From Synechococcus sp. UW140 (GTDB lineage Bacteria; Cyanobacteriota; Cyanobacteriia; PCC-6307; Cyanobiaceae): a DNA stretch of 32,000 bases. The stretch is from contig CALRNH020000005.1 in assembly GCA_943369485.1 (NCBI GenBank), positions 121,258-153,257 on the forward strand, written 5' to 3'. A program made the translations under genes and the position numbers. How positions within the stretch are numbered: the stretch's first letter is position 1; each line of letters starts with the position of its first letter. Below are positions 16,111 to 25,224 of this stretch, one piece after another. The notes beneath the pieces are model-generated. The model was not told the origin of the DNA. It was given only the letters and a program-made list of their open reading frames with translations, and did not search any database.

Positions 16111-16971
16111 TCAGGCCGCCGGCAGCACCTGGCGGTAGCCCCCGGCGGACACCACCTGCAAGGGCGTGTGGAACAGCGCGCTCAAGGGAGCGTCCCGCAG
16201 CAGCTCATCGGCGGGGCCATCGCCCACCACGGCCCCCCGGTTCAGCAGCACGCAGCGGCTGATTTCGGGGATGATCGCCTCGATCTGGTGGGTCACCAGC
16301 AGCAGGGTGGTCCCGGAGCGGGCCAGATCGCGCAGGATGTCCAGCAGCTGGTGGCGGGAGCGCAGGTCGAGGCCATTGGTGGGTTCATCCAGCACCAGCA
16401 CCTCGGGATCGTGCACCAGGGCCCGGGCCAGCAGCAGCCGGCGCTTCTGACCATCGGAGAGCTGGGCCAACGGGCGCTCGGCCAGATCCAACAGGGCCAG
16501 CTGGGCCATCAGCTCCCGCACCCGCTCGCGCTGGGGGTCTGTGGGCTGCTGGCTGCGGCCGATTCCCACCGAGCCGAAAAAGCCCGATAGCACCACGTCG
16601 AAGGCGCGCACGCGTCCTATGTAGCCGATCTGCAGATCCGTGGAGACGAGGCCGAGGCGCGCGCGCAGGTCCCAGAGGTTCACGGTTTCGCTGCCGAAGA
16701 TCCGCAGCGCCGAACCGGGCTTGACCAGCGGGTAGAGCTCGCGGCTGAGCAGTTTGATCAGGGCACTTTTGCCGGCCCCATTGGGGCCGAGCACCACGGT
16801 GTGCTCACCCAGTTGCAGGCGCAGGTTGAGGTTCTCGAACACAAGGCGTGGGCCGAGGTAGGCGTCCACGGCCTGGAGCTCGAAGTAGGGGCTGGAGGAC
16901 GTCAAAACCGGGGGTGGGCTGAAGGGAAGCCTATGGGGCGAGGCTTCGGCCGCCATCAGAGGCGCTACCAT
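16111..16971 (-). CDS. ABC ATPase, ModF/COG1119-like, no adjacent permease
   Basis: Walker A GPNGAGKSA, signature LSDGQKRR, Walker B VLVLDEPTNGLD, and H-loop VTHQ. The N-terminal start is uncertain. Confidence 0.85.
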   Translation of the reverse strand: MVAPLMAAEASPHRLPFSPPPVLTSSSPYFELQAVDAYLGPRLVFENLNLRLQLGEHTVVLGPNGAGKSALIKLLSRELYPLVKPGSALRIFGSETVNLWDLRARLGLVSTDLQIGYIGRVRAFDVVLSGFFGSVGIGRSQQPTDPQRERVRELMAQLALLDLAERPLAQLSDGQKRRLLLARALVHDPEVLVLDEPTNGLDLRSRHQLLDILRDLARSGTTLLLVTHQIEAIIPEISRCVLLNRGAVVGDGPADELLRDAPLSALFHTPLQVVSAGGYRQVLPAA

Positions 16972-16991
16972 CTGACCATCAGGTCATCGAG

Positions 16992-17234
16992 GTGGTTGTG
17001 GCGACGCGATCGGTGGCGGTGGTGGAAGCCAAGTCCCAGTTCTCGGCCCTGCTGGCCGAGGTGGAGGCCGGCGCGGAGGTGCGGATCACGCGCCGCGGAC
17101 GCACCGTGGCCCGGTTGGTGCCGGAGCCGGCCCGCCTGGCCTCGGACCTGTTCGAACCGTTCTGGAGCGAAGCCCCACCCGAGCTGGAGGAACTGCTGGA
17201 CCCCCCTGCGGACCCGGTGGGCATGCTGGATTGA
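16992..17234 (+). CDS. Phd/YefM-type antitoxin
   Basis: VAVVEAKSQFSALLAEVEAGAEVRITRRGRTVARLVP is the typical Phd/YefM N-terminal domain. GTG start. Followed 3 nt later by a PIN gene. Confidence 0.8.
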   Translation: MVVATRSVAVVEAKSQFSALLAEVEAGAEVRITRRGRTVARLVPEPARLASDLFEPFWSEAPPELEELLDPPADPVGMLD

Positions 17235-17237
17235 TCG

Positions 17238-17636
17238 GTGGCGTTTCTGCTCGACACCAACATCCTGATCGCCGCCATCAAGGGCCACCCAGCCGTGGCG
17301 GAACGGCTGCGCAGCTTGGAGGCATCCCAGCTGTTGCTGTCATCGGTGGTGCTGGGAGAACTGGAGACCGGTGTGCTCAAGAGCGCCTGGCCGGCGCGCA
17401 ACCGTGAGCAGCTGGAAAGAGTGGTGAATCAGCTGGAACTGATCTCCGTGGATGGGGCCGTGGCCAAGGCCTATGGACGGATCAGCGCAGCGTTAGAGCA
17501 GCAGGGAACACCGATCGGGGCCAATGATCTCTGGATCGCGGCCCAGGCCCTGGTCAGTGGAGCCGTTCTGGTGACGGCCAACCTGCGCGAGTTCGAGCGG
17601 GTGGAGGGGCTGAGCTTGGACAACTGGTTGGCGTAG
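17238..17636 (+). CDS. vapC: PIN-domain toxin (VapC family)
   Basis: FLLDTNILIAAIKG...VVLGELETG...GANDLWIAAQAL...LVTANLREFERV carries the four conserved PIN acidic positions. GTG start. Confidence 0.85.
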   Translation: MAFLLDTNILIAAIKGHPAVAERLRSLEASQLLLSSVVLGELETGVLKSAWPARNREQLERVVNQLELISVDGAVAKAYGRISAALEQQGTPIGANDLWIAAQALVSGAVLVTANLREFERVEGLSLDNWLA

Positions 17637-17671
17637 GCGGACCATTGGGTGCGGCCGATGGAACCGACCCC

Positions 17672-18115
17672 TCAGGCCAACGCCTCCAGGTAGAGCCACT
17701 GGCCCTGGGGGCCGCGCCCGAAACGGGAGCGCTCTTCAAGCACTCCGCTGCGGCCACGGCGGCTCCAGCGGGCCTGGAACTCCACGGTGCCCTCAGCATC
17801 GCCTGGGCCACCGGCCTCGCTGGCCAGTACGGTGAGCCCCAACCAGCGGGTCTGGCCGCACGCCGCCAGCAGCTCACGACGCCGTTGGCGCCCATCGGGA
17901 ACCGGCTCAGGGTGGGTGCGCAGCAGGTGATCGATCGCCCCAGGCTCCACGCCGGCCAGGGCGAAGGCGCTGTAACGCGAGCGCATCAATTGCTCGGCGG
18001 TGGAGGCCAACTGCTGGCCGCGGATCAACGGGGCGCAACACGCGGCATAGGCCCCGGCTCCGCAGGGGCAGGCGGCAGGCAGCTTGGAGATTGAAACAGC
18101 GAAGCCCTGGGCCAT
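17672..18115 (-). CDS. YchJ/UPF0225-family protein with N-terminal SEC-C-like motif
   Basis: From ATG 18115: ...ACPCGAGAYAACC...AEQLMRSRYSAFALAG...TRWLGLTVL...EFQARW...ERSRF...GQWLYL resembles E. coli YchJ. The second C-terminal SEC-C motif is absent. Confidence 0.7.
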   Translation of the reverse strand: MAQGFAVSISKLPAACPCGAGAYAACCAPLIRGQQLASTAEQLMRSRYSAFALAGVEPGAIDHLLRTHPEPVPDGRQRRRELLAACGQTRWLGLTVLASEAGGPGDAEGTVEFQARWSRRGRSGVLEERSRFGRGPQGQWLYLEALA

Positions 18116-18276
18116 GGGCAACGGGAACGATGAACCCACTCTGGGCTGGTGGCAGACGATCAGGCCTTCGAGGAGGCCTTGAAGCGCCAGGGCCGGCGGA
18201 AGGGTGGCAATGACTACAAGAGCCTCAAATTGGCCGACTAGGGTTCCGATGGCCTCCTTTAAGGGTTGAACCACTG

Positions 18277-20439
18277 GTGTGGATGCGTCGTCTCTCCAGG
18301 GATTCAGCGAGTCAGCTGAGCATCAAATCAAAGCTGATTCTGATGCTGCTGCTGGTGAGCGGCTTCTCCACGCTCATCTCGGCGGCCCTGGGCTATCGAA
18401 GCGGCCAGATCAATCTCACCAATCGGGTCTTCAATCAGCTCACCAGTGTCAGAGCTTCAAAGGCCTATCAGATCGAATCCTATTTTCGGAACATCCAGAA
18501 TCACACTCAGACCCTGAGTGAAGACCTTTCGATCGTCGCTGCCGTCGAGCAGTTCGACGCGGCCTTCCAGCAACTGAAAGGTGTGAAAGGGTCTGCCCAA
18601 TCAGACCAGGCCCTGGAGACCTACTACCGCAAGGAATTCCTACCACGGCTGGATCAGTACCATTCCGGCACTCCGAACCTCCCCGCCTATCTGGCCAGTG
18701 ACCCGGCCACGCGTTACCTGCAGTACAACTACATTGCCGCCAATCCCAATCCGGTCGGCAAGAAACAGCAACTCGTCGCCGCAAAGGATGGCAGCGCCTA
18801 TTCACAGGTGCATGGGCGCTATCACCCGATCTTTCGCAACATCATCGCCAAGTTCGGCTACTACGACATGTTCCTGATCAATCCCCAGGGACAGATTGTC
18901 TACACCGTTTTCAAGGAAACCGATTACGCCACCAACCTTGACCATGGCCCCTACAAGGACAGCAATCTGGCCGAGCTGGTGCGTCAGGTGATCGCCTCAA
19001 AGGAGAAAGGGTTCACCCGGCTGGTCGACTTTGCCACCTATGCCCCCTCCTACGGCGCACCCGCCTCCTTCATCGCGGCCCCGATCTACAACGGCTCCAA
19101 GCTGGTCGGCGTTCTCGCCTTTCAGATGCCCGTCGACGAGATCAACAACGTGATGACCGGCAACCAGGAATGGAAACAGGATGGACTGGGCCAATCAGGT
19201 GAAACCATCCTGGTGGGCCAGGACAACCTGATGCGCTCGGCCTCGCGCTTCTATCTGGAGAATCCCAAGGCCTTTCTGACCCAGTTGCAGTCACGGGGCA
19301 TGAAGGAAGACGCGATCGCACGGCTGCGCCAATACAAAACGACGATCCTGCAGCAGCCGGTCTCCACCCCGGCGGTGACCAAGGCGGTCGCCGGTGGCTC
19401 CGGAACCCTGCAGGTGGTCGACTATCGCGGTGTGCCGGTGCTGAGTTCCTATGCGCCGCTTCAGATCGATGGCTTCGACTGGGTGATCCTCTCCCAGATG
19501 GACCTGGCGGAGGCCTATGCGCCGATCCACGCCTTCCAGCGGCAGATCCTGATCACCGTGACGTTGCTGATCCTGCTGGTCACCCTGCTGGCCATGGCTC
19601 TGGCCCATCTGTTCGTCAAGCCTGTCCAGCAACTGATCGAGAGTGCCCGCAAGGTCTCGTCCGGCGAACTCACGAGCATCCCGGAAGTGAATTCCAAGGA
19701 CGAATTCGGAGAGTTGGGCCGGTCCTTCAATGCCGTCGTGCAGAGTCTCCAGACCCAGACGGCGCTGGTCGATCAGAAGAACCAGGAGAACGAGAAGCTG
19801 CTGTTCAGCGTCTTTCCCACGGCCATCGCCCGCCGGCTGCAGCGGGGTGAAACTCAGATCGCCGAAGACGTCACCAACGTGGCGGTTCTGTTCGCCGATC
19901 TCAAGGGATTCTCCCAACTCTCCTCGTCCCTCACGGCCTATGAATCGCTGGCCATTCTCAACGATCTGGTGGGGTCCTTCGATGACCTGGCCGAGCAGTT
20001 CGGTCTGGAAAAAATCAAGACCATCGGCGACAGCTATCTCGCGGTCTGCGGCCTCTCGGTGCCCTACCTCGACCATGACAAACGGGCGCTCGATTTCGCC
20101 ATCGAGATGCTGGGTGTCCTGCGACGTTTCAACCTCGAGCGCGGCTTCACCCTCGGTCTCCAGATCGGCATCCACTCCGGCGACATCGTGGCCGGCATCG
20201 TCGGCAAGAGTCGGGTGGTCTATGACATCTGGGGCGAAACGGTCAAACAGACCCACGGGCTCAGCCAGGTCTGTCCCTCCGGCTGCGTGCTTGTCTCCGA
20301 GGTGGTGCATCACCGGCTCGAGGATCTCTACCAGTTCGAGCTCACCTCCGCGGCAAGCAATGGTCAGAAATCACAGCAGGCCTGGCAGTTGATGAGCACC
20401 ACCGCGCCAGCGGTCGGCGAGGCACTCTCGAAACCATGA
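18277..20439 (+). CDS. membrane sensor nucleotide cyclase: TM - double-Cache-like periplasmic domain - TM - HAMP - class III cyclase domain
   Basis: TM1 KLILMLLLVSGFSTLISAALGY, a ~380-aa extracytoplasmic region, TM2 ILITVTLLILLVTLLAMALAHLF, HAMP VKPVQQLIESARKVSSGEL...FGELGRSFNAVVQSL, and cyclase VAVLFADLKGFS...IKTIGDSYLAVCG...YDIWGETV. Start is GTG 18277 or ATG 18283. Confidence 0.9.
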   Translation: MWMRRLSRDSASQLSIKSKLILMLLLVSGFSTLISAALGYRSGQINLTNRVFNQLTSVRASKAYQIESYFRNIQNHTQTLSEDLSIVAAVEQFDAAFQQLKGVKGSAQSDQALETYYRKEFLPRLDQYHSGTPNLPAYLASDPATRYLQYNYIAANPNPVGKKQQLVAAKDGSAYSQVHGRYHPIFRNIIAKFGYYDMFLINPQGQIVYTVFKETDYATNLDHGPYKDSNLAELVRQVIASKEKGFTRLVDFATYAPSYGAPASFIAAPIYNGSKLVGVLAFQMPVDEINNVMTGNQEWKQDGLGQSGETILVGQDNLMRSASRFYLENPKAFLTQLQSRGMKEDAIARLRQYKTTILQQPVSTPAVTKAVAGGSGTLQVVDYRGVPVLSSYAPLQIDGFDWVILSQMDLAEAYAPIHAFQRQILITVTLLILLVTLLAMALAHLFVKPVQQLIESARKVSSGELTSIPEVNSKDEFGELGRSFNAVVQSLQTQTALVDQKNQENEKLLFSVFPTAIARRLQRGETQIAEDVTNVAVLFADLKGFSQLSSSLTAYESLAILNDLVGSFDDLAEQFGLEKIKTIGDSYLAVCGLSVPYLDHDKRALDFAIEMLGVLRRFNLERGFTLGLQIGIHSGDIVAGIVGKSRVVYDIWGETVKQTHGLSQVCPSGCVLVSEVVHHRLEDLYQFELTSAASNGQKSQQAWQLMSTTAPAVGEALSKP

Positions 20440-21920
20440 ACACCTCCTCACCTCTGTGGTTGTGGGGAATCAGCCTGGCCATCGGCTTTCCCCTGCTGAC
20501 GATCGTGCTGGGCGAAGTGATCCATCGCCTGAAGCGACGGGGGCTGGCGATTGCGAGCACGGTCCGGCTGGTGCGCGATGTGCTGCTGCCGATCCTGGTG
20601 CTGTTGGTCTTCCTGCAGCACCTGCTCATGGTCGACCCCGGCAGTCGTCTGTTCAGGACCGTCGAGACGGTGTTCTGGGTCTGCGTGATCCATGCCGCCC
20701 TTTCCCTGCTCAACGTGGTCCTGTTCGAGCAGGCCGAGGCCGACACCTGGCGCTCAAGGGTGCCGAAGCTGCTGATCGATCTGGCACGCCTGTTTCTGAT
20801 CCTGCTGGGAACCGCGTTCGTTCTGGCCACCGTCTGGAACGCGGATCTGGCCGGTCTGGTCACCGCCCTGGGGGTCAGTTCGATCGTCATCGGTCTGGCC
20901 CTGCAGGACACCCTCGGCAGTGTGATGTCGGGCATTGCCCTGCTGTTCGAGCGGCCCTTCACGGTGGGGGACTGGCTGGAGGTGGGCGGCGTAGTGGGCC
21001 AGGTGATCGACATCAATTGGCGTGCCGTGAGGTTGCTGACGCTGGAGCAGGAGATGGTCGTGATCCCCCACAAGCTGATCAGCAGTGAGATCATCCGGAA
21101 TTTCACCAAGCCCAACCCGATCCACGCCGAAAGGATCCAGATCGGCTTCTCTTACAACGATCCGCCCAACCTGGCGCGGCAAGTGCTCAAGAGCACGGCC
21201 TTGGAAACCAAGGGCATTCTGCTGGATCCAGAACCTGATGTGTTCACGCTCGCCTATGCCGACTCTGCCGTGTCCTATGAGGTGAAGTTCTTCATTCGCG
21301 ACTATGGCGATGTTGAACAGATTCGTGAACGCTTCATGACACGGGTCTGGTACGCCGCCAAGCGCAACAACCTTTCGATTCCTTTTCCGATCCGAACGGT
21401 GTACAACTACCATGGGCCCACGAGCCAGCAGAAAGGGCTCGCCAAGAAGTTCAGCGAAAGCCTCCAGGCCATCCCCTCCTACGTACCCATCAATCGCGAG
21501 GAGAGCAGCGTCACCACCTCATCAACAGGAATCGCCCTTCAGCATTTTGCGGCAGGAGAGAAGGTGATCCGCCAGGGCCGAATGGGCAACGAGCTCTATA
21601 TCATTGTCGCCGGCCAGGCGGTGATGTCAACCCGCGATGACAGTGGCGAAGATCTGGACTTACTCGCGCTGAGAAGTGGTGAGTTCTTCGGCGAGATGAG
21701 CCTGTTTTCCGGTGAACCCAGCGTCGTGACCATCGCCGCCAGCAATGATCTTGAAGTGATGAAGCTCCCAGCGGCGGTGGTCAATCAGATGATCGATCGC
21801 CAGCCCAGCTTCGCCCGCGAGATCGGCCAGATCCTCGAGATCCGCCGCCTGGCGATCCAGGAGACGAAACAGGCCCACCGCCAGTCGATGCAGGACCAGC
21901 AAGCGGGGCAACGCCCCTGA
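20436..21920 (+). CDS. MscS-family mechanosensitive-type channel with C-terminal cyclic-nucleotide-binding domain (bCNG-like)
   Basis: N-terminal TM helices. MscS core GLALQDTLGSVMSGIALLFERPFTVGDWLEVGGVVGQVIDINWRAVRL...VVIPHKLI...IRNFTKP. CNB-like C terminus GNELYIIVAGQAVM...GEFFGEMSLFSGEP. ATGA overlap with the cyclase gene. Confidence 0.9.
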   Translation: MNTSSPLWLWGISLAIGFPLLTIVLGEVIHRLKRRGLAIASTVRLVRDVLLPILVLLVFLQHLLMVDPGSRLFRTVETVFWVCVIHAALSLLNVVLFEQAEADTWRSRVPKLLIDLARLFLILLGTAFVLATVWNADLAGLVTALGVSSIVIGLALQDTLGSVMSGIALLFERPFTVGDWLEVGGVVGQVIDINWRAVRLLTLEQEMVVIPHKLISSEIIRNFTKPNPIHAERIQIGFSYNDPPNLARQVLKSTALETKGILLDPEPDVFTLAYADSAVSYEVKFFIRDYGDVEQIRERFMTRVWYAAKRNNLSIPFPIRTVYNYHGPTSQQKGLAKKFSESLQAIPSYVPINREESSVTTSSTGIALQHFAAGEKVIRQGRMGNELYIIVAGQAVMSTRDDSGEDLDLLALRSGEFFGEMSLFSGEPSVVTIAASNDLEVMKLPAAVVNQMIDRQPSFAREIGQILEIRRLAIQETKQAHRQSMQDQQAGQRP

Positions 21921-22021
21921 CCGGGGCCGTGACACCCCTTAGCTCCCGACGGTGATCAACCATGCAGGAGACTGCACCGGAAGCGCGCCTCCGCAGGCCC
22001 CATGGATGAATCCTGCCACCG

Positions 22022-22201
22022 ATGAGCCCACTGTTTGCCTGTTCAGGTTGTGGCGTTCGGATTGAACGCTCGATGCGCCTCTATCTCGAGCAGAAGGGAC
22101 ATGTGCTCTGCTCCACCTGCAAGGACCAGCGGGAGGCTGATCCACCCGCTTCAGAGGCGCCGAGTGCCGCAGAGAACGAGATGCCACCGACCGGAAGCTG
22201 A
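22022..22201 (+). CDS. putative 59-aa zinc-ribbon protein (below the ORF-track length cut-off)
   Basis: Own translation: MSPLFACSGCGVRIERSMRLYLEQKGHVLCSTCKDQREADPPASEAPSAAENEMPPTGS*. It has two CxxC pairs 20 residues apart. It competes with an implausible 82-aa antisense ORF. Confidence 0.4.
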   Translation: MSPLFACSGCGVRIERSMRLYLEQKGHVLCSTCKDQREADPPASEAPSAAENEMPPTGS

Positions 22202-23662
22202 CTAAGCGATCACCGCTTCCCCGCGCCGGTGGATCTCGCTGGCGTAGGCGGTCCAGGCTCCCTGGCCCCAGTAGCGGAAGCAGCTGGTTTCCAGCAGCAG
22301 CAGGTGGAGCAGGGCTTCCTGGTAGCGCGGGGATTTGGTGATGGCGGGATCCTCAGCCACCAGGGGATCAAACACCTGGTGGAACCGGGCGCTGAACTGG
22401 TTCATCGGCTCCAGCACGTTGCCGTAGCCCTCCACCCAGCTGAGATCGTTGGTCCAGGAGGCACCCGCCATCGAGAACTGGGGATCACTGGCCTGGAGGG
22501 CGGCGATCGCGGCTTCGGTGGCTTCCGGGGTGGGTGGGCAACCAACCTGTCGCCACAGCTTGTGTTGCTGCACGGCCTGAATCGTCGGGTAGTCAGCGGG
22601 GCTGAATCCGGCGGCTTCCAGCAACTCCAGATACTCGGTGCCATTGATCGCCACGGTGCCTGAATCGTTGCCCGCATCCCTGCCCAAAGAGGCAATTTTC
22701 TGATGGGCCTGGATGAAGGCGGACGGGAATTCATTCATCATCACGCCGCCATTTTCACCATCGGCAATCTGTGACACGAGCGAAGGGATCATTGTTTCTC
22801 CCAGCGCTTGCCGTTCCAGCCCGAGGGCTTCGTAGCAGGGCTGCATCTGTCCCACCAGCTTGGTATCGGAACCCTGGGTTTTGATCAAGGCCGTGATCGA
22901 CACCTCCTCGCCGCTGGAGCTGCGTGCCACGAGCTGGTTGGGGCGGTATTTCTGCTCCTGACTGAGGCCTGAACCATCGAGGTTCTCCACGCTGTGCTCC
23001 TGCACCAGCAGCCAGCGGTAGCCGCAATCGCGGAGGGCCTTCACGAAGGCATAGAGGGTGTCGGGGTGGTTGGGCAGGTGCATCTCAGGCGGAGAGAATC
23101 CCTTCACCCGTTGCAGGGCCTCAGGGCCGAAGAGGGCCGCGAAATGGTGTTGCCAGGCCAGGATCTGCAGCTTGAGATCGGGGATGGGCGTGGAGGGAGC
23201 CACGGCATGGCTCCAGAAGGTGCCGAGCCATTCCACGTGGGGCTGCAGGCTGGGATCGCAGGCGAGCGACTTCAGGGCATCGAGGATGTCGTAGCGGCCC
23301 ATCTGCTCAAAGCCCCAGAGCAGGTTGCCCGAGTAATCCAGCATGATCCGGGGATTGCAGCCATCACGAATCAGCTGGGGGAGGATCTCCGCGAGGCGCT
23401 TGTAGCACTGGGCAAACGCTTCGGCGTTGTGGTTATCGCCCTCGCCGGGGTGCTCAAACATGTATTGCAGATGCGACATCAGCTCGCCATTGGCCCCGGC
23501 CGGAATCGTGGGCTGGTGCATGTGCAGGGCGCAGGCAAAGCCTGAGCGGATCTGCTCCAGGTTGAGATTGGAGTGCGGCGCAAACGCGGGGCCGGCCTGC
23601 TGCATGAGGGCGAGGATCTCGGCTTCGTCGCCAGCGATCGGCGGTAGGGAGGGGTGGGTCAT
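22202..23662 (-). CDS. glycoside hydrolase family 57 protein
   Basis: From ATG 23662 (MTHPSLPPIAG...): CALHMHQPTIP (GH57 region I HQP), then LDYSGNLLWG, with length and overall layout of cyanobacterial GH57 proteins. The upstream extension of the ORF is rejected. Confidence 0.8.
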   Translation of the reverse strand: MTHPSLPPIAGDEAEILALMQQAGPAFAPHSNLNLEQIRSGFACALHMHQPTIPAGANGELMSHLQYMFEHPGEGDNHNAEAFAQCYKRLAEILPQLIRDGCNPRIMLDYSGNLLWGFEQMGRYDILDALKSLACDPSLQPHVEWLGTFWSHAVAPSTPIPDLKLQILAWQHHFAALFGPEALQRVKGFSPPEMHLPNHPDTLYAFVKALRDCGYRWLLVQEHSVENLDGSGLSQEQKYRPNQLVARSSSGEEVSITALIKTQGSDTKLVGQMQPCYEALGLERQALGETMIPSLVSQIADGENGGVMMNEFPSAFIQAHQKIASLGRDAGNDSGTVAINGTEYLELLEAAGFSPADYPTIQAVQQHKLWRQVGCPPTPEATEAAIAALQASDPQFSMAGASWTNDLSWVEGYGNVLEPMNQFSARFHQVFDPLVAEDPAITKSPRYQEALLHLLLLETSCFRYWGQGAWTAYASEIHRRGEAVIA

Positions 23663-24081
23663 GACAGGCGCCAGGGGTTGATCAGCTCCAGGCCGACCTC
23701 GGCAAAATCGGCACCGTCCCGGGTGGCCAGCTGAGCACCATGGGCCAAGGCGGTGGCGGCGATCACCGCATCGGCGGTGGCCATCGGGCACGCCAACCGA
23801 TCGCGCCGGCTCAACAGTTCGCCGTACCAATGCGCCGCCTCGCTGGTGAAAGGCCACACCCGTCCACTGAACAGCTCGGCCAGCAGCTCCTCCCAGCTCT
23901 GCTGCAGCGACTGCTTGCGGCGACCCTCCGGCAGCCGGGACAGGCCATGGCGGATCTCGGCTTCGTTCATGGCGGTGATGGCGACGGCGCCTGGATCGAG
24001 CCGATCGGCCCAGGCCAGAACCTGGGGAGTGGGCGTGGGGCGCATCAACTCCGAGATCACGTTGGTATCAAGCACGATCAC
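23659..24081 (-). CDS. vapC: PIN-domain toxin (VapC/FitB-like)
   Basis: IVLDTNVISELMRP...MNEAEIRHGL...DAVIAATALAHGAQLATRDGADF. GTG start overlaps the antitoxin stop (GTGA). Its TGA overlaps the GH57 ATG (ATGA). Confidence 0.85.
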   Translation of the reverse strand: MIVLDTNVISELMRPTPTPQVLAWADRLDPGAVAITAMNEAEIRHGLSRLPEGRRKQSLQQSWEELLAELFSGRVWPFTSEAAHWYGELLSRRDRLACPMATADAVIAATALAHGAQLATRDGADFAEVGLELINPWRLS

Positions 24082-24341
24082 TCCGCCGCCTCCGTGAAGG
24101 CCGGCGGCTGGGGGATGGAATGACGATCAGGCAGCTCCATCTCCACCCCTCCCAACCGGGCGAAATGGGCATGGATCTGGCTGCCCAAGCCCTGCACAGC
24201 AGAACCGGGCTCGCTAACCGCAACGGCTTCTTTGAGGATCGTGCGCGCCTCTTCCTCCATGGAGCGGCCATGGCGGGCGGCCTGGATGCGTAGCTGGGTC
24301 TTGATGCTGTCTTCGAGGTTGCGGATCGTGAGGGTGGCCAT
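24078..24341 (-). CDS. ribbon-helix-helix antitoxin (FitA/Arc-like)
   Basis: MATLTIRNLEDSIKTQLRIQAARHGRSMEEEARTILKEAV is the typical FitA-like RHH N terminus. AGGAG lies 7 nt upstream of ATG 24341. Confidence 0.75.
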   Translation of the reverse strand: MATLTIRNLEDSIKTQLRIQAARHGRSMEEEARTILKEAVAVSEPGSAVQGLGSQIHAHFARLGGVEMELPDRHSIPQPPAFTEAAE

Positions 24342-24595
24342 CGACTTGCTCCTGCTCACACTGAGCTCAATGCTATCAACGCCAGCACCGATCGCTTTCG
24401 CGCTCTCCGTCTGCTCAACGCTTATATCCAAGAATCTGGCCCACGATGGCCCTCAGGTCATCCAGCTGACCTGGACCCCAGAAACTGAACAAGTCCTGAT
24501 GAGAGCTTCCCAAGCGGGCAAACGTCCACCGCCTGGCCGGAAAGCGGCGAACAGGCGACACACTCCTAGGGTTGAATTAGCTGATTGTTGACCCA

Positions 24596-24856
24596 GTGCA
24601 GACGCTCCCCCTCGCTCTGGCCGCTGTGCTGTTGGCCTTTCCGCTGCTGAGCGCAGGCCCGGCACTGGCCCAGAAGCGGATTCCCAAACTCCCGGGTCAA
24701 GATCAGTGTCCGCTTGGTTATGTGAATGACCTGAAGCAACATTGTAATTCACCCATCTATTACGAGGTGAGGCCCACCTACGGCAAACCCTGTCTCTCGG
24801 GATGGATGAACATCGGGGCGGGCTACTGCAAGAAGAAGACGCTGTGGATCTTCTGA
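24596..24856 (+). CDS. small secreted cysteine-rich protein (hypothetical)
   Basis: Signal peptide VQTLPLALAAVLLAFPLLSAGPALA/QK. The ~60-aa mature part has 4 Cys (QCPLG, HCNSP, PCLSG, YCKKK). GTG start. Locally low GC. Confidence 0.5.
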   Translation: MQTLPLALAAVLLAFPLLSAGPALAQKRIPKLPGQDQCPLGYVNDLKQHCNSPIYYEVRPTYGKPCLSGWMNIGAGYCKKKTLWIF

Positions 24857-25224
24857 TGCGCTTGGTCAGGTGATCATTCGCTCAGAGCACCAAGCCAAGG
24901 ATCTGCCCCACAATCGCCATCACCTGCTCCGGTTGGATCCTGCGGGCCGCCGCCCGCTGACGATCAGGCGGGGGAGTCGGTGTTTCCTGCCCATTGGCAC
25001 TTGATTCAGAGGCGTGAGGGCGATGGCGAGCAGCCTTTGGATTGGGGGCGGGCACCGGCACGGGGGTCATCGCGGTGCGGAGATGGGATGGACCGCTTTG
25101 CCTAGGATTGGGAGGGCCGCCCGATCGGCAAGGTCAACCCCTTGGGGCCTCGGAGCCGGCCCATCCATGGGAACGGCCAACCATTCGTTGAGATCAGCAG
25201 ATCCATCCCTAGCCCGCAGATTCC

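Follow-up and report, generated by a model that had tools for sequence, protein, structure and literature searches.

What does a cyclase-like membrane receptor pass to an ion channel when the two are encoded as one overlapping gene pair? The question is raised by two genes at positions 18277 to 21920 of a 32,000-nucleotide (nt) stretch of DNA from the freshwater picocyanobacterium Synechococcus sp. UW140 (contig CALRNH020000005.1, positions 121,258 to 153,257), the whole of which is referred to below as the window. Gene 1 encodes a receptor in which a periplasmic sensor is joined to a cyclase-homology domain, and gene 2 encodes an MscS-type channel with, at its C terminus, a cyclic-nucleotide-binding (CNB)-like domain. 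A preliminary description of this DNA took the pair to imply a circuit that runs from external ligand to cyclic nucleotide to channel gating. We found that the two genes form a conserved operon and that both proteins depart from the canonical state at sites that touch phosphate. We tentatively favor a reading, the leading one here although it falls somewhat short of an even chance, in which the genes constitute a self-contained mobile receptor-channel pair with private, non-canonical coupling. The features on which the argument draws are the following.

18277 to 20439, plus strand: gene 1, 720 amino acids (aa), with a GTG start and an in-frame ATG two codons further; a membrane receptor with the layout transmembrane segment 1 (TM1), double-Cache periplasmic sensor, TM2, HAMP domain, signalling helix and class IIIa-like cyclase-homology domain.
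18391 to 19545, plus strand: periplasmic double-Cache sensor domain of gene 1 (aa 39 to 423), with an extra N-terminal helical insertion (Pfam, AlphaFold and Foldseek).
19600 to 19752, plus strand: HAMP domain of gene 1 (aa 442 to 492; Pfam HAMP, 50.4 bits).
19864 to 20349, plus strand: cyclase-homology domain of gene 1 (aa 530 to 691; Pfam Guanylate_cyc, 132 bits).
20436 to 20439, plus strand: ATGA, the overlap of the gene 1 stop with the gene 2 start, visible in the sequence.
20436 to 21920, plus strand: gene 2, 494 aa, an MscS-type channel with a C-terminal CNB-like domain.
21528 to 21800, plus strand: CNB-like domain of gene 2 (aa 365 to 455; Pfam, and alignment to PKA RI-alpha and PKG).
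21684 to 21740, plus strand: phosphate-binding cassette (PBC) of gene 2, FFGEMSLFSGEPSVVTIAA (aa 417 to 435), with Gly-Glu kept.

Both open reading frames (ORFs) and their overlap lie where the preliminary description had placed them, and its domain assignments (TM, Cache, TM, HAMP and class III cyclase for the first protein; MscS and CNB for the second) were upheld by Pfam, AlphaFold/Foldseek and hydropathy. In gene 1, hydropathy places TM1 at about residues 20 to 38 and TM2 at about 424 to 442, with a periplasmic domain of about 385 aa between them. Pfam recognizes dCache_1 at residues 194 to 405, but only marginally (45.7 bits against a 45-bit cutoff), and residues 42 to 417 were therefore modelled. 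The AlphaFold model, built from an alignment of 33 sequences, has a predicted local distance difference test (pLDDT) score of 85.7, and Foldseek matches it with a probability of 1.0 to the double-Cache ligand-binding domains of PctA, DctB, Mlp24, McpH and TlpQ. The fold of the gene 1 sensor is thus that of dCache chemoreceptor and kinase sensors, but identity to them is just 10 to 16%, and the model contains an additional helical insertion of about 100 aa, which accounts for the unusual length of the domain. A helical connector (aa 493 to 529) follows the HAMP domain and gives a weak HNOBA-like match at 487 to 521 (13.6 bits, below the Pfam cutoff). The output module also differs, being a cyclase-like domain in gene 1 and a methyl-accepting chemotaxis protein (MCP) or kinase module in the dCache chemoreceptors and kinases.

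Gene 2 has the pore-lining TM3 and the beta and alpha-beta cytoplasmic domains by which the MscS family is recognized (Pfam and Foldseek). Pfam finds MS_channel_2nd at residues 158 to 225 (69.8 bits), MS_channel_3rd at 234 to 315 (49.9 bits) and cNMP_binding at 369 to 455 (64.9 bits). The AlphaFold model (pLDDT 77.4) comprises five TM helices and the MscS beta and alpha-beta domains, then a low-confidence, flexible linker of about 45 aa (residues 318 to 364) and the CNB beta-roll, after which a long helix closes the chain at the C terminus. Foldseek matches the model to EcMscK and EcMscS with a probability of 1.0 and a target-normalised TM-score of up to 0.85.

The linkage between the two genes is conserved. 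An alignment of channel homologues was scanned against one genome per species (GTDB representatives), and the counts of loci given here concern the best 80 of 198 relatives. By sequence, all 80 channel loci are cyanobacterial; in 76 of them, tblastn located a full-length cyclase orthologue (57 to 98% identity) directly upstream on the same strand. As for the four exceptions, one ends at a contig edge, while the other three (L061, L065 and L066) have no cyclase gene in the available upstream sequence, which in L065 amounts to 837 nt; unrelated housekeeping genes lie upstream in two of these three. The ATGA overlap recurs at the junction in 42 loci and a 1-nt overlap is found in 6, with a gap of at most 151 nt in the remaining measurable loci. 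Overlapping stop and start codons favor roughly matched co-production, which fits physically interacting partners, and the translational-coupling geometry that had been proposed for the window pair is borne out by its overlap. No third conserved gene, such as one for a phosphodiesterase or CRP, accompanies the pair, since ORF clustering (shadow ORFs aside) gave no flanking cluster common to more than 10 of the 80 loci. The preliminary description had allowed that the adjacency could be incidental if orthologues were usually unlinked in related genomes. With adjacency in 76 of 80 loci the pairing is not incidental, and the view of the two genes as one dedicated functional unit is further strengthened by the recurrence of the pair in the distant lineages described below, among cyanobacterial paralogues as well as in Verrucomicrobiota.

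The borders of the conserved DNA are sharp. Between the window and seven other Cyanobium-like species, DNA similarity starts at 18193 to 18280 and stops at 21877 to 21896, so that the shared block consists of exactly the two genes plus a leader of up to about 85 nt. In high-G+C picocyanobacteria the G+C content of the cassette lies 5 to 10 points under that of its flanks, and about 15 points under in two genomes, while in low-G+C filamentous cyanobacteria cassette and flanks are equal; in the window itself, a trough of 58 to 63% extends over 18000 to 25000, compared with 67 to 70% in the flanks. The G+C pattern points to horizontal arrival from a donor of lower G+C content. Because similarity ends at the borders and the G+C content contrasts with the surroundings, we take the cassette to be a separate unit that has moved from context to context, and it looks horizontally acquired. 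No close relative was found in PLSDB, where the matches were just rhizobial MscS-CNB proteins at about 28% identity. The mobility of the cassette agrees with a single sentence in the literature, according to which adenylate cyclases in Synechococcus/Cyanobium genomic islands lie near a "cAMP-regulated" MscS channel (Dore et al. 2020, PMC7522525; cAMP, cyclic AMP).

Is the cyclase-homology domain equipped to make a cyclic nucleotide? It has the class III cyclase-homology fold, with matches in the PDB to AC9 (170 bits), AC8, AC5 and mycobacterial Cya (4p2m, 127 bits), and it is class IIIa-like, with a better score for the C1 half of the mammalian enzyme (99 bits) than for C2 (69 bits). Alignment to solved cyclases shows that D541 and D585, the two Asp that bind metal, are kept, and so is K581/D650, the pair that gives ATP-type specificity. 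The transition-state residues are not: in alignments to AC9 C1 and C2, with which a profile alignment agrees, the Asn is replaced by K657 (20245 to 20247) and the Arg by G661 (20257 to 20259), so that the canonical YDIWGxTVNxAxR corresponds to YDIWGETVKQTHG. Full-length homologues of gene 1 numbered 116 (60 to 96% identity). Among the 117 sequences that these make up with the window protein, not one has Arg in the transition-state Arg column, and the Asn column holds N in 60 and K in 52; the first metal Asp (the D541 column) is E, Q or N in 20. In mutants of Rv1625c and of mammalian C2, loss of either transition-state residue by itself reportedly lowers kcat by one to two orders of magnitude. 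Judged by these residues, the gene 1 domain would be at best a crippled adenylate cyclase, probably still able to bind Mg-ATP.

The presumed receiver of the nucleotide is altered in a comparable place. The published consensus for CNB domains on mechanosensitive channels is GEIALLTGGPRTATVRA, in which the Arg is the key phosphate contact (Kannan et al. 2007, PMC2246266); gene 2 and its clade have Ser at this position. In the alignment to PKA RI-alpha and PKG, the phosphate-clamping Arg corresponds to Ser429 (21720 to 21722; GEPSVVT against GTPRAAT), and the column is Ser in 79 of 79 channel orthologues. Of the two elements that mark a canonical bacterial cyclic nucleotide-gated (bCNG) PBC, Gly-Glu and Arg, gene 2 therefore has the first and lacks the second. 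Gly-Glu is present in most of the orthologues, the Glu being gone in some, e.g., L045, L049, L050, L052 and L057. As far as can be read from the cassette residues, the usual way of clamping a cyclic phosphate is not available to the domain. In two Cyanobium strains (L020 and L053) the PBC reads GEPSRVTIAA, with an Arg right after the invariant Ser, perhaps as a partial reversion, perhaps in compensation.

Whether a channel has a cyclase partner goes along with its type of PBC. An exhaustive search of 1.84 billion representative proteins returned 1478 MscS-CNB-like proteins at E <= 1e-30, among which the orthologue clade of the window channel is compact, identity dropping from 55% directly to 47% or less. 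An alignment was made of the most similar of these, 136 full-length representatives together with the window protein; since the PBC Arg column of the 137 sequences holds S in 73, R in 21, N in 13, A in 12 and T in 9, an Arg-less PBC is widespread. An alignment of Arg-type channels was further used to scan metagenome contigs, giving 80 diverse loci, in which adjacency was scored where at least 2.3 kb of upstream sequence was available. Among 15 Ser-type channels, 13 have a cyclase gene directly upstream, as do 4 of 5 channels with another Arg-less PBC. Of 23 Arg-type channels, 2 have a cyclase gene nearby; these are duplicates of one locus, and the gene is about 1.2 kb off. After dereplication at 70% identity, an adjacent cyclase is present in 15 of 16 Arg-less lineages and in 0 of 16 Arg-type lineages (Fisher p = 6e-8), a value that does not gauge repeated co-evolution, because in a neighbor-joining tree (without support values) the association comes mainly from a single deep branching that separates an Arg-type clade from an Arg-less clade linked to cyclases. 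A nested contrast is provided by L081 to L085, which have the Arg and no cyclase and lie inside the Arg-less clade. A dedicated upstream cyclase-like receptor is thus a feature of the clade of gene 2 and not of the sampled Arg-type channels. This is the reverse of what a producer placed beside its receiver, as originally envisaged, leads one to expect: the cyclase-linked channels are those without the Arg, and the canonical Arg-type channels, whose cassette agrees with the consensus of Kannan et al., are not cyclase-linked.

The partners of the distant channels extend this picture. All 10 of the distant partners examined have the dCache_1-HAMP-cyclase architecture, at 713 to 757 aa, with cyclase-fold scores of 105 to 178 bits and 30 to 40% identity. 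In a profile alignment their catalytic columns are widely degenerate, the second metal Asp being S, P, G, N, A or R depending on the branch, and all six canonical catalytic residues are present in 1 of 19 distinct partner lineages (L095/L099). Cyclases near Arg-type channels, on the other hand, are canonical at every covered catalytic position, and the four complete ones read DKDTNR. Since the partner domains score strongly for the fold and have repeatedly lost catalytic residues, they appear to be kept for something besides catalysis. Gene calls with precomputed Pfam matches independently confirm the pair in two further cases. In a metagenome-assembled genome (MAG) of Chthoniobacterales (Verrucomicrobiota), the two genes are 19 nt apart, Gly stands in place of the metal Asp and the PBC has degenerated completely. 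The genes of Leptolyngbyaceae JSC-12 are separated by 2 nt and combine a DKDDNI cyclase with a Ser-type PBC. In Hyella patelloides (L164, 3952 to 4488), the position of the cyclase gene, 12 nt upstream of a Ser-type MscS-CNB channel, is occupied by a gene for a 178-aa multi-pass membrane protein for which no family match was found.

The surroundings of the first two of these pairs contain other signalling genes. In the Chthoniobacterales MAG, a GluR0-like ligand-gated channel gene (SBP_bac_3 and Lig_chan; L161, 5960 to 7030) begins 29 nt downstream of the pair, an apparent case of two channel genes in one operon. In Leptolyngbyaceae JSC-12, a hybrid CheA gene and an MCP gene (L162, 5984 to 10473) adjoin the pair on the opposite strand.

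How, then, might the receptor control the channel? In the reading that we favor, an extracytoplasmic ligand would bind the double-Cache domain of gene 1, and the signal would travel by way of TM2, HAMP and the helical connector into a cyclase-homology domain that acts as a dimer. The latter would control the gene 2 channel through its C-terminal CNB-like domain, whether by allostery directly between the domains or by a nucleotide signal that is very local and of low affinity, rather than through the cell-wide cAMP pool. The Arg-type channels, which are apparent readers of the cAMP pool, are not linked to cyclases, as is sensible for a diffusible messenger; the linked pairs would then need something private. 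A bolder version of the same idea, which we consider rather unlikely, is that a pseudo-enzyme cyclase domain and a pseudo-receptor CNB domain have co-evolved and touch directly, making up a two-subunit ligand-gated MscS-type channel that works without a diffusible messenger.

Several observations weigh against private, non-canonical coupling and have to be set beside the evidence for it. Physical contact between the gene 1 and gene 2 proteins is proposed, not observed. In the tree, the association between PBC type and cyclase linkage comes down to few independent events. One lineage, L095/L099, has a fully canonical cyclase beside a Ser-type channel. Within the window clade the catalytic site is far from dissolved, four of its six residues being strongly conserved: K581, D585 and D650 are invariant in the 117 sequences, and D541 is present in 97 of them, Glu taking its place in 14 more. 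The transition-state Asn site and the position at +6 covary: picocyanobacteria have Lys followed by Ser at +6, and all other clades have Asn followed by Lys or Arg at +6. This covarying basic residue perhaps reflects selection for a positive charge near the phosphates, and hence real catalysis. On the channel side, the retained Gly-Glu and the strongly conserved Ser suggest that the gene 2 pocket may still bind a nucleotide.

These points lend most to the main rival, a genuine private cAMP relay, in which the Cache sensor would drive a weak but real adenylate cyclase and the local cAMP would modulate or open the channel by way of a CNB domain that binds it weakly and so keeps the channel insulated from the cell-wide pool. 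The relay would account for the conservation, in the window clade, of the metal Asp residues together with the Lys/Asp pair that specifies ATP, for a basic residue that alternates between position 0 and position +6 in the catalytic helix, for a PBC with Gly-Glu in most orthologues and an invariant Ser, and for the L095/L099 arrangement; and a similar neighbor has already been termed a "cAMP-regulated" MscS channel (PMC7522525). A simple relay is weakened, however, because the transition-state Asn and Arg and the phosphate-clamping Arg are all absent, and because sister operons keep the pair after the loss of metal ligands. Some orthologues have Gln or Asn for the first metal Asp, some have lost the PBC Glu, and the second metal Asp is gone in many related operons that still keep the pair. 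On balance we regard the relay as unlikely, yet as a serious contender. The sequence from ligand through cyclic nucleotide to gating, which the preliminary description presented as the implied mechanism, is accordingly reduced to one candidate by K657/G661, by Ser429 and by the loss of metal ligands in related operons.

An improbable alternative is that the cyclase makes, and the CNB domain reads, a different nucleotide, either another cyclic nucleoside monophosphate (cNMP) or a non-cyclic product, the odd residues representing a matched change in chemistry. That both non-canonical sites touch phosphate, that both are conserved rather than decaying in the window clade and that Ser is the commonest residue at the Arg position (73 of the 137 most similar MscS-CNB sequences aligned) would fit such a change. 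The base-specifying pair, however, is the standard ATP-type Lys/Asp, the similarity to Pycsar cyclases is weak and confined to the domain level, and related partners without metal ligands cannot make any product.

We consider it very improbable that gene 1 is a C1-like half-enzyme, active only as a heterodimer with a cyclase encoded elsewhere that supplies the Asn and Arg. The better match to C1 than to C2, and the presence of the metal Asp together with the absence of Asn and Arg, as in C1, are what it would predict; but no second cyclase gene is conserved near the pair, the Lys/Asp substrate pair is kept, unlike in C1, and the dCache-HAMP architecture is typical of homodimeric receptors. It is equally far-fetched that the two genes are merely co-regulated neighbors without direct signalling, for although the three cyclase-less loci and the small membrane protein of Hyella show that the channel can exist without a cyclase partner, the 76 of 80 adjacency, the translational overlap, the joint movement between contexts and the recurrence down to 30 to 40% identity all argue for a closer tie. 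Private, non-canonical coupling of receptor and channel therefore stays our preferred, if tentative, reading.

The leader that is conserved with the pair suggests when it may be expressed.

18204 to 18244, plus strand: conserved leader with an NtcA-type promoter layout, consisting of GTGGCAATGACTAC (18204 to 18217), 21 nt and a -10-like TAGGGT (18239 to 18244), with 32 nt to the GTG start.

NtcA-activated promoters carry their box about 22 nt upstream of a TAN3T hexamer, a layout that the leader matches, so that the operon would probably be induced under nitrogen limitation. The published consensus of the box is GTAN8TAC, centered at -41.5 (PMC3898017). The third base of the GTGGCAATGACTAC box is G, not the A of the consensus, and an alignment of 10 species shows no variation at its GT and TAC positions. 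Of 72 loci, 38 have the pattern GT-N9-TAC-N20-23-TAN3T between -58 and -98, where the background expectation is 0.009 per 270 nt; among the 38 are nearly all of the picocyanobacterial loci and several filamentous ones. From this layout, NtcA probably switches on the operon under nitrogen limitation, and that the Cache ligand is itself nitrogen-related is speculation. No riboswitch or other structured RNA reached Rfam gathering thresholds in the leader or the rest of the window. Sigma-70 promoter and intrinsic terminator scans of 17600 to 22400 gave nothing over chance, the single terminator-like site on the plus strand, inside gene 1, being within shuffled expectation.

A divergent YchJ-like gene (17672 to 18274, minus strand) lies upstream of gene 1. 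Its listed ORF start at 18274 leaves 2 nt before gene 1, and for this reason the gene more likely starts at the ATG at 18115, which would give a 161-nt intergenic region containing the conserved leader.

Several other features of the neighborhood may be recorded. The closest relative, L001, is syntenic with the window at 94 to 95% DNA identity, apart from a 720-bp insertion at 16951 to 17671 that corresponds to a Phd/YefM-PIN toxin-antitoxin pair (ORFs 16992 to 17234 and 17238 to 17636). A second, PIN/FitA-like pair is found at 23659 to 24431 on the minus strand. Directly downstream of the cassette, a long ORF of up to 551 aa (22202 to 23857, minus strand) has no Pfam match at E <= 0.001; its region is shared in DNA with L001 and not with the seven other Cyanobium-like species compared. 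Six MAG records (L001, L002, L006, L011, L013 and L015), whose cassettes have 88 to 98% protein identity, are titled Acidovorax, Sulfopaludibacter, Rhizobium, Bordetella, Tabrizicola or Mesorhizobium; these organism names look wrong.

Does the pair correspond to a known system? bCNG channels, bacterial cyclic nucleotide-gated channels of the MscS type, reportedly go back to work by Caldwell et al. in 2010 and Malcolm et al. in 2012. Gene 2 shares their architecture of an MscS pore, a cytoplasmic cage and a C-terminal CNB-fold domain. Gene 1 has its catalytic fold in common with class IIIa membrane adenylate cyclases (Rv1625c-like Cya, Rv3645-type HAMP cyclases and the C1/C2 domains of mammalian adenylate cyclases), and it runs, as they do, from receptor through TM, HAMP and helical connector to cyclase; it differs from them in the change of Asn/Arg to Lys/Gly, in the loss of metal ligands among related partners and in being genetically locked to an ion channel. 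By architecture, then, gene 2 is a bCNG channel and gene 1 a class IIIa receptor cyclase, but on the present alignments each fails one defining sequence feature.

Two more distant comparisons bear on this. KCNH/EAG-type channels have a cyclic-nucleotide-binding homology domain that is not known to bind cNMP. Like gene 2, they carry a CNB-fold domain without the phosphate-binding Arg, a similarity that suggests a regulatory use other than cNMP binding; their pore has the voltage-gated K+ fold rather than that of MscS, so this is an analogy and not whole-protein homology. With Pycsar pairs the cassette shares a formal layout, a cyclase gene beside that of a membrane effector with a CNB domain, and differs in its large receptor with a periplasmic sensor, its ATP-type residues, its broad conservation across cyanobacterial orders and its nitrogen-control promoter motif. 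Pycsar or another defence system was considered and rejected. The PADLOC model PycC scored 37.5 bits on the generic cyclase domain only, compared with 132 bits for the general cyclase model, and the effector matches, at 23 to 28 bits, were limited to the CNB part. With matches this weak and domain-level, the earlier preference for physiology over Pycsar-type defence holds.

In the searchable literature, outside which fall the founding bCNG papers, where some of it may be mentioned, we found no account of the conserved operon beyond the sentence in PMC7522525, of the Arg-less subclass or of the degenerate partner cyclases. The parts are known, and the locked pair with its matched non-canonical sites is apparently a distinct, unnamed subclass. 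According to a 2026 review, bCNG channels are found mostly in cyanobacteria, neither their physiological role nor the part that cyclic nucleotides play in gating them is yet known, and a structure is lacking (PMC13591265).

Our results divide the MscS-CNB channels in two, a canonical Arg-type that stands alone and an Arg-less type that is locked to a dCache-HAMP-cyclase-like receptor. With this split, the Arg-less kind acquires a natural input from upstream in the form of an extracellular ligand, and probably a regulatory setting as well, that of nitrogen limitation acting via NtcA; cultured carriers of the pair would allow the open question about bCNG channels to be tested directly. The results also advise caution in annotating such genes as "adenylate cyclase" or "cAMP-regulated channel" from domain names alone. 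Direct coupling, if true, would be a clear bacterial example of the cyclase fold and the CNB fold being reused as a protein-protein signalling interface, and a two-subunit ligand-gated MscS channel, should the pair prove to be one, would represent a new way to build a bacterial ligand-gated channel and a new use of both folds.

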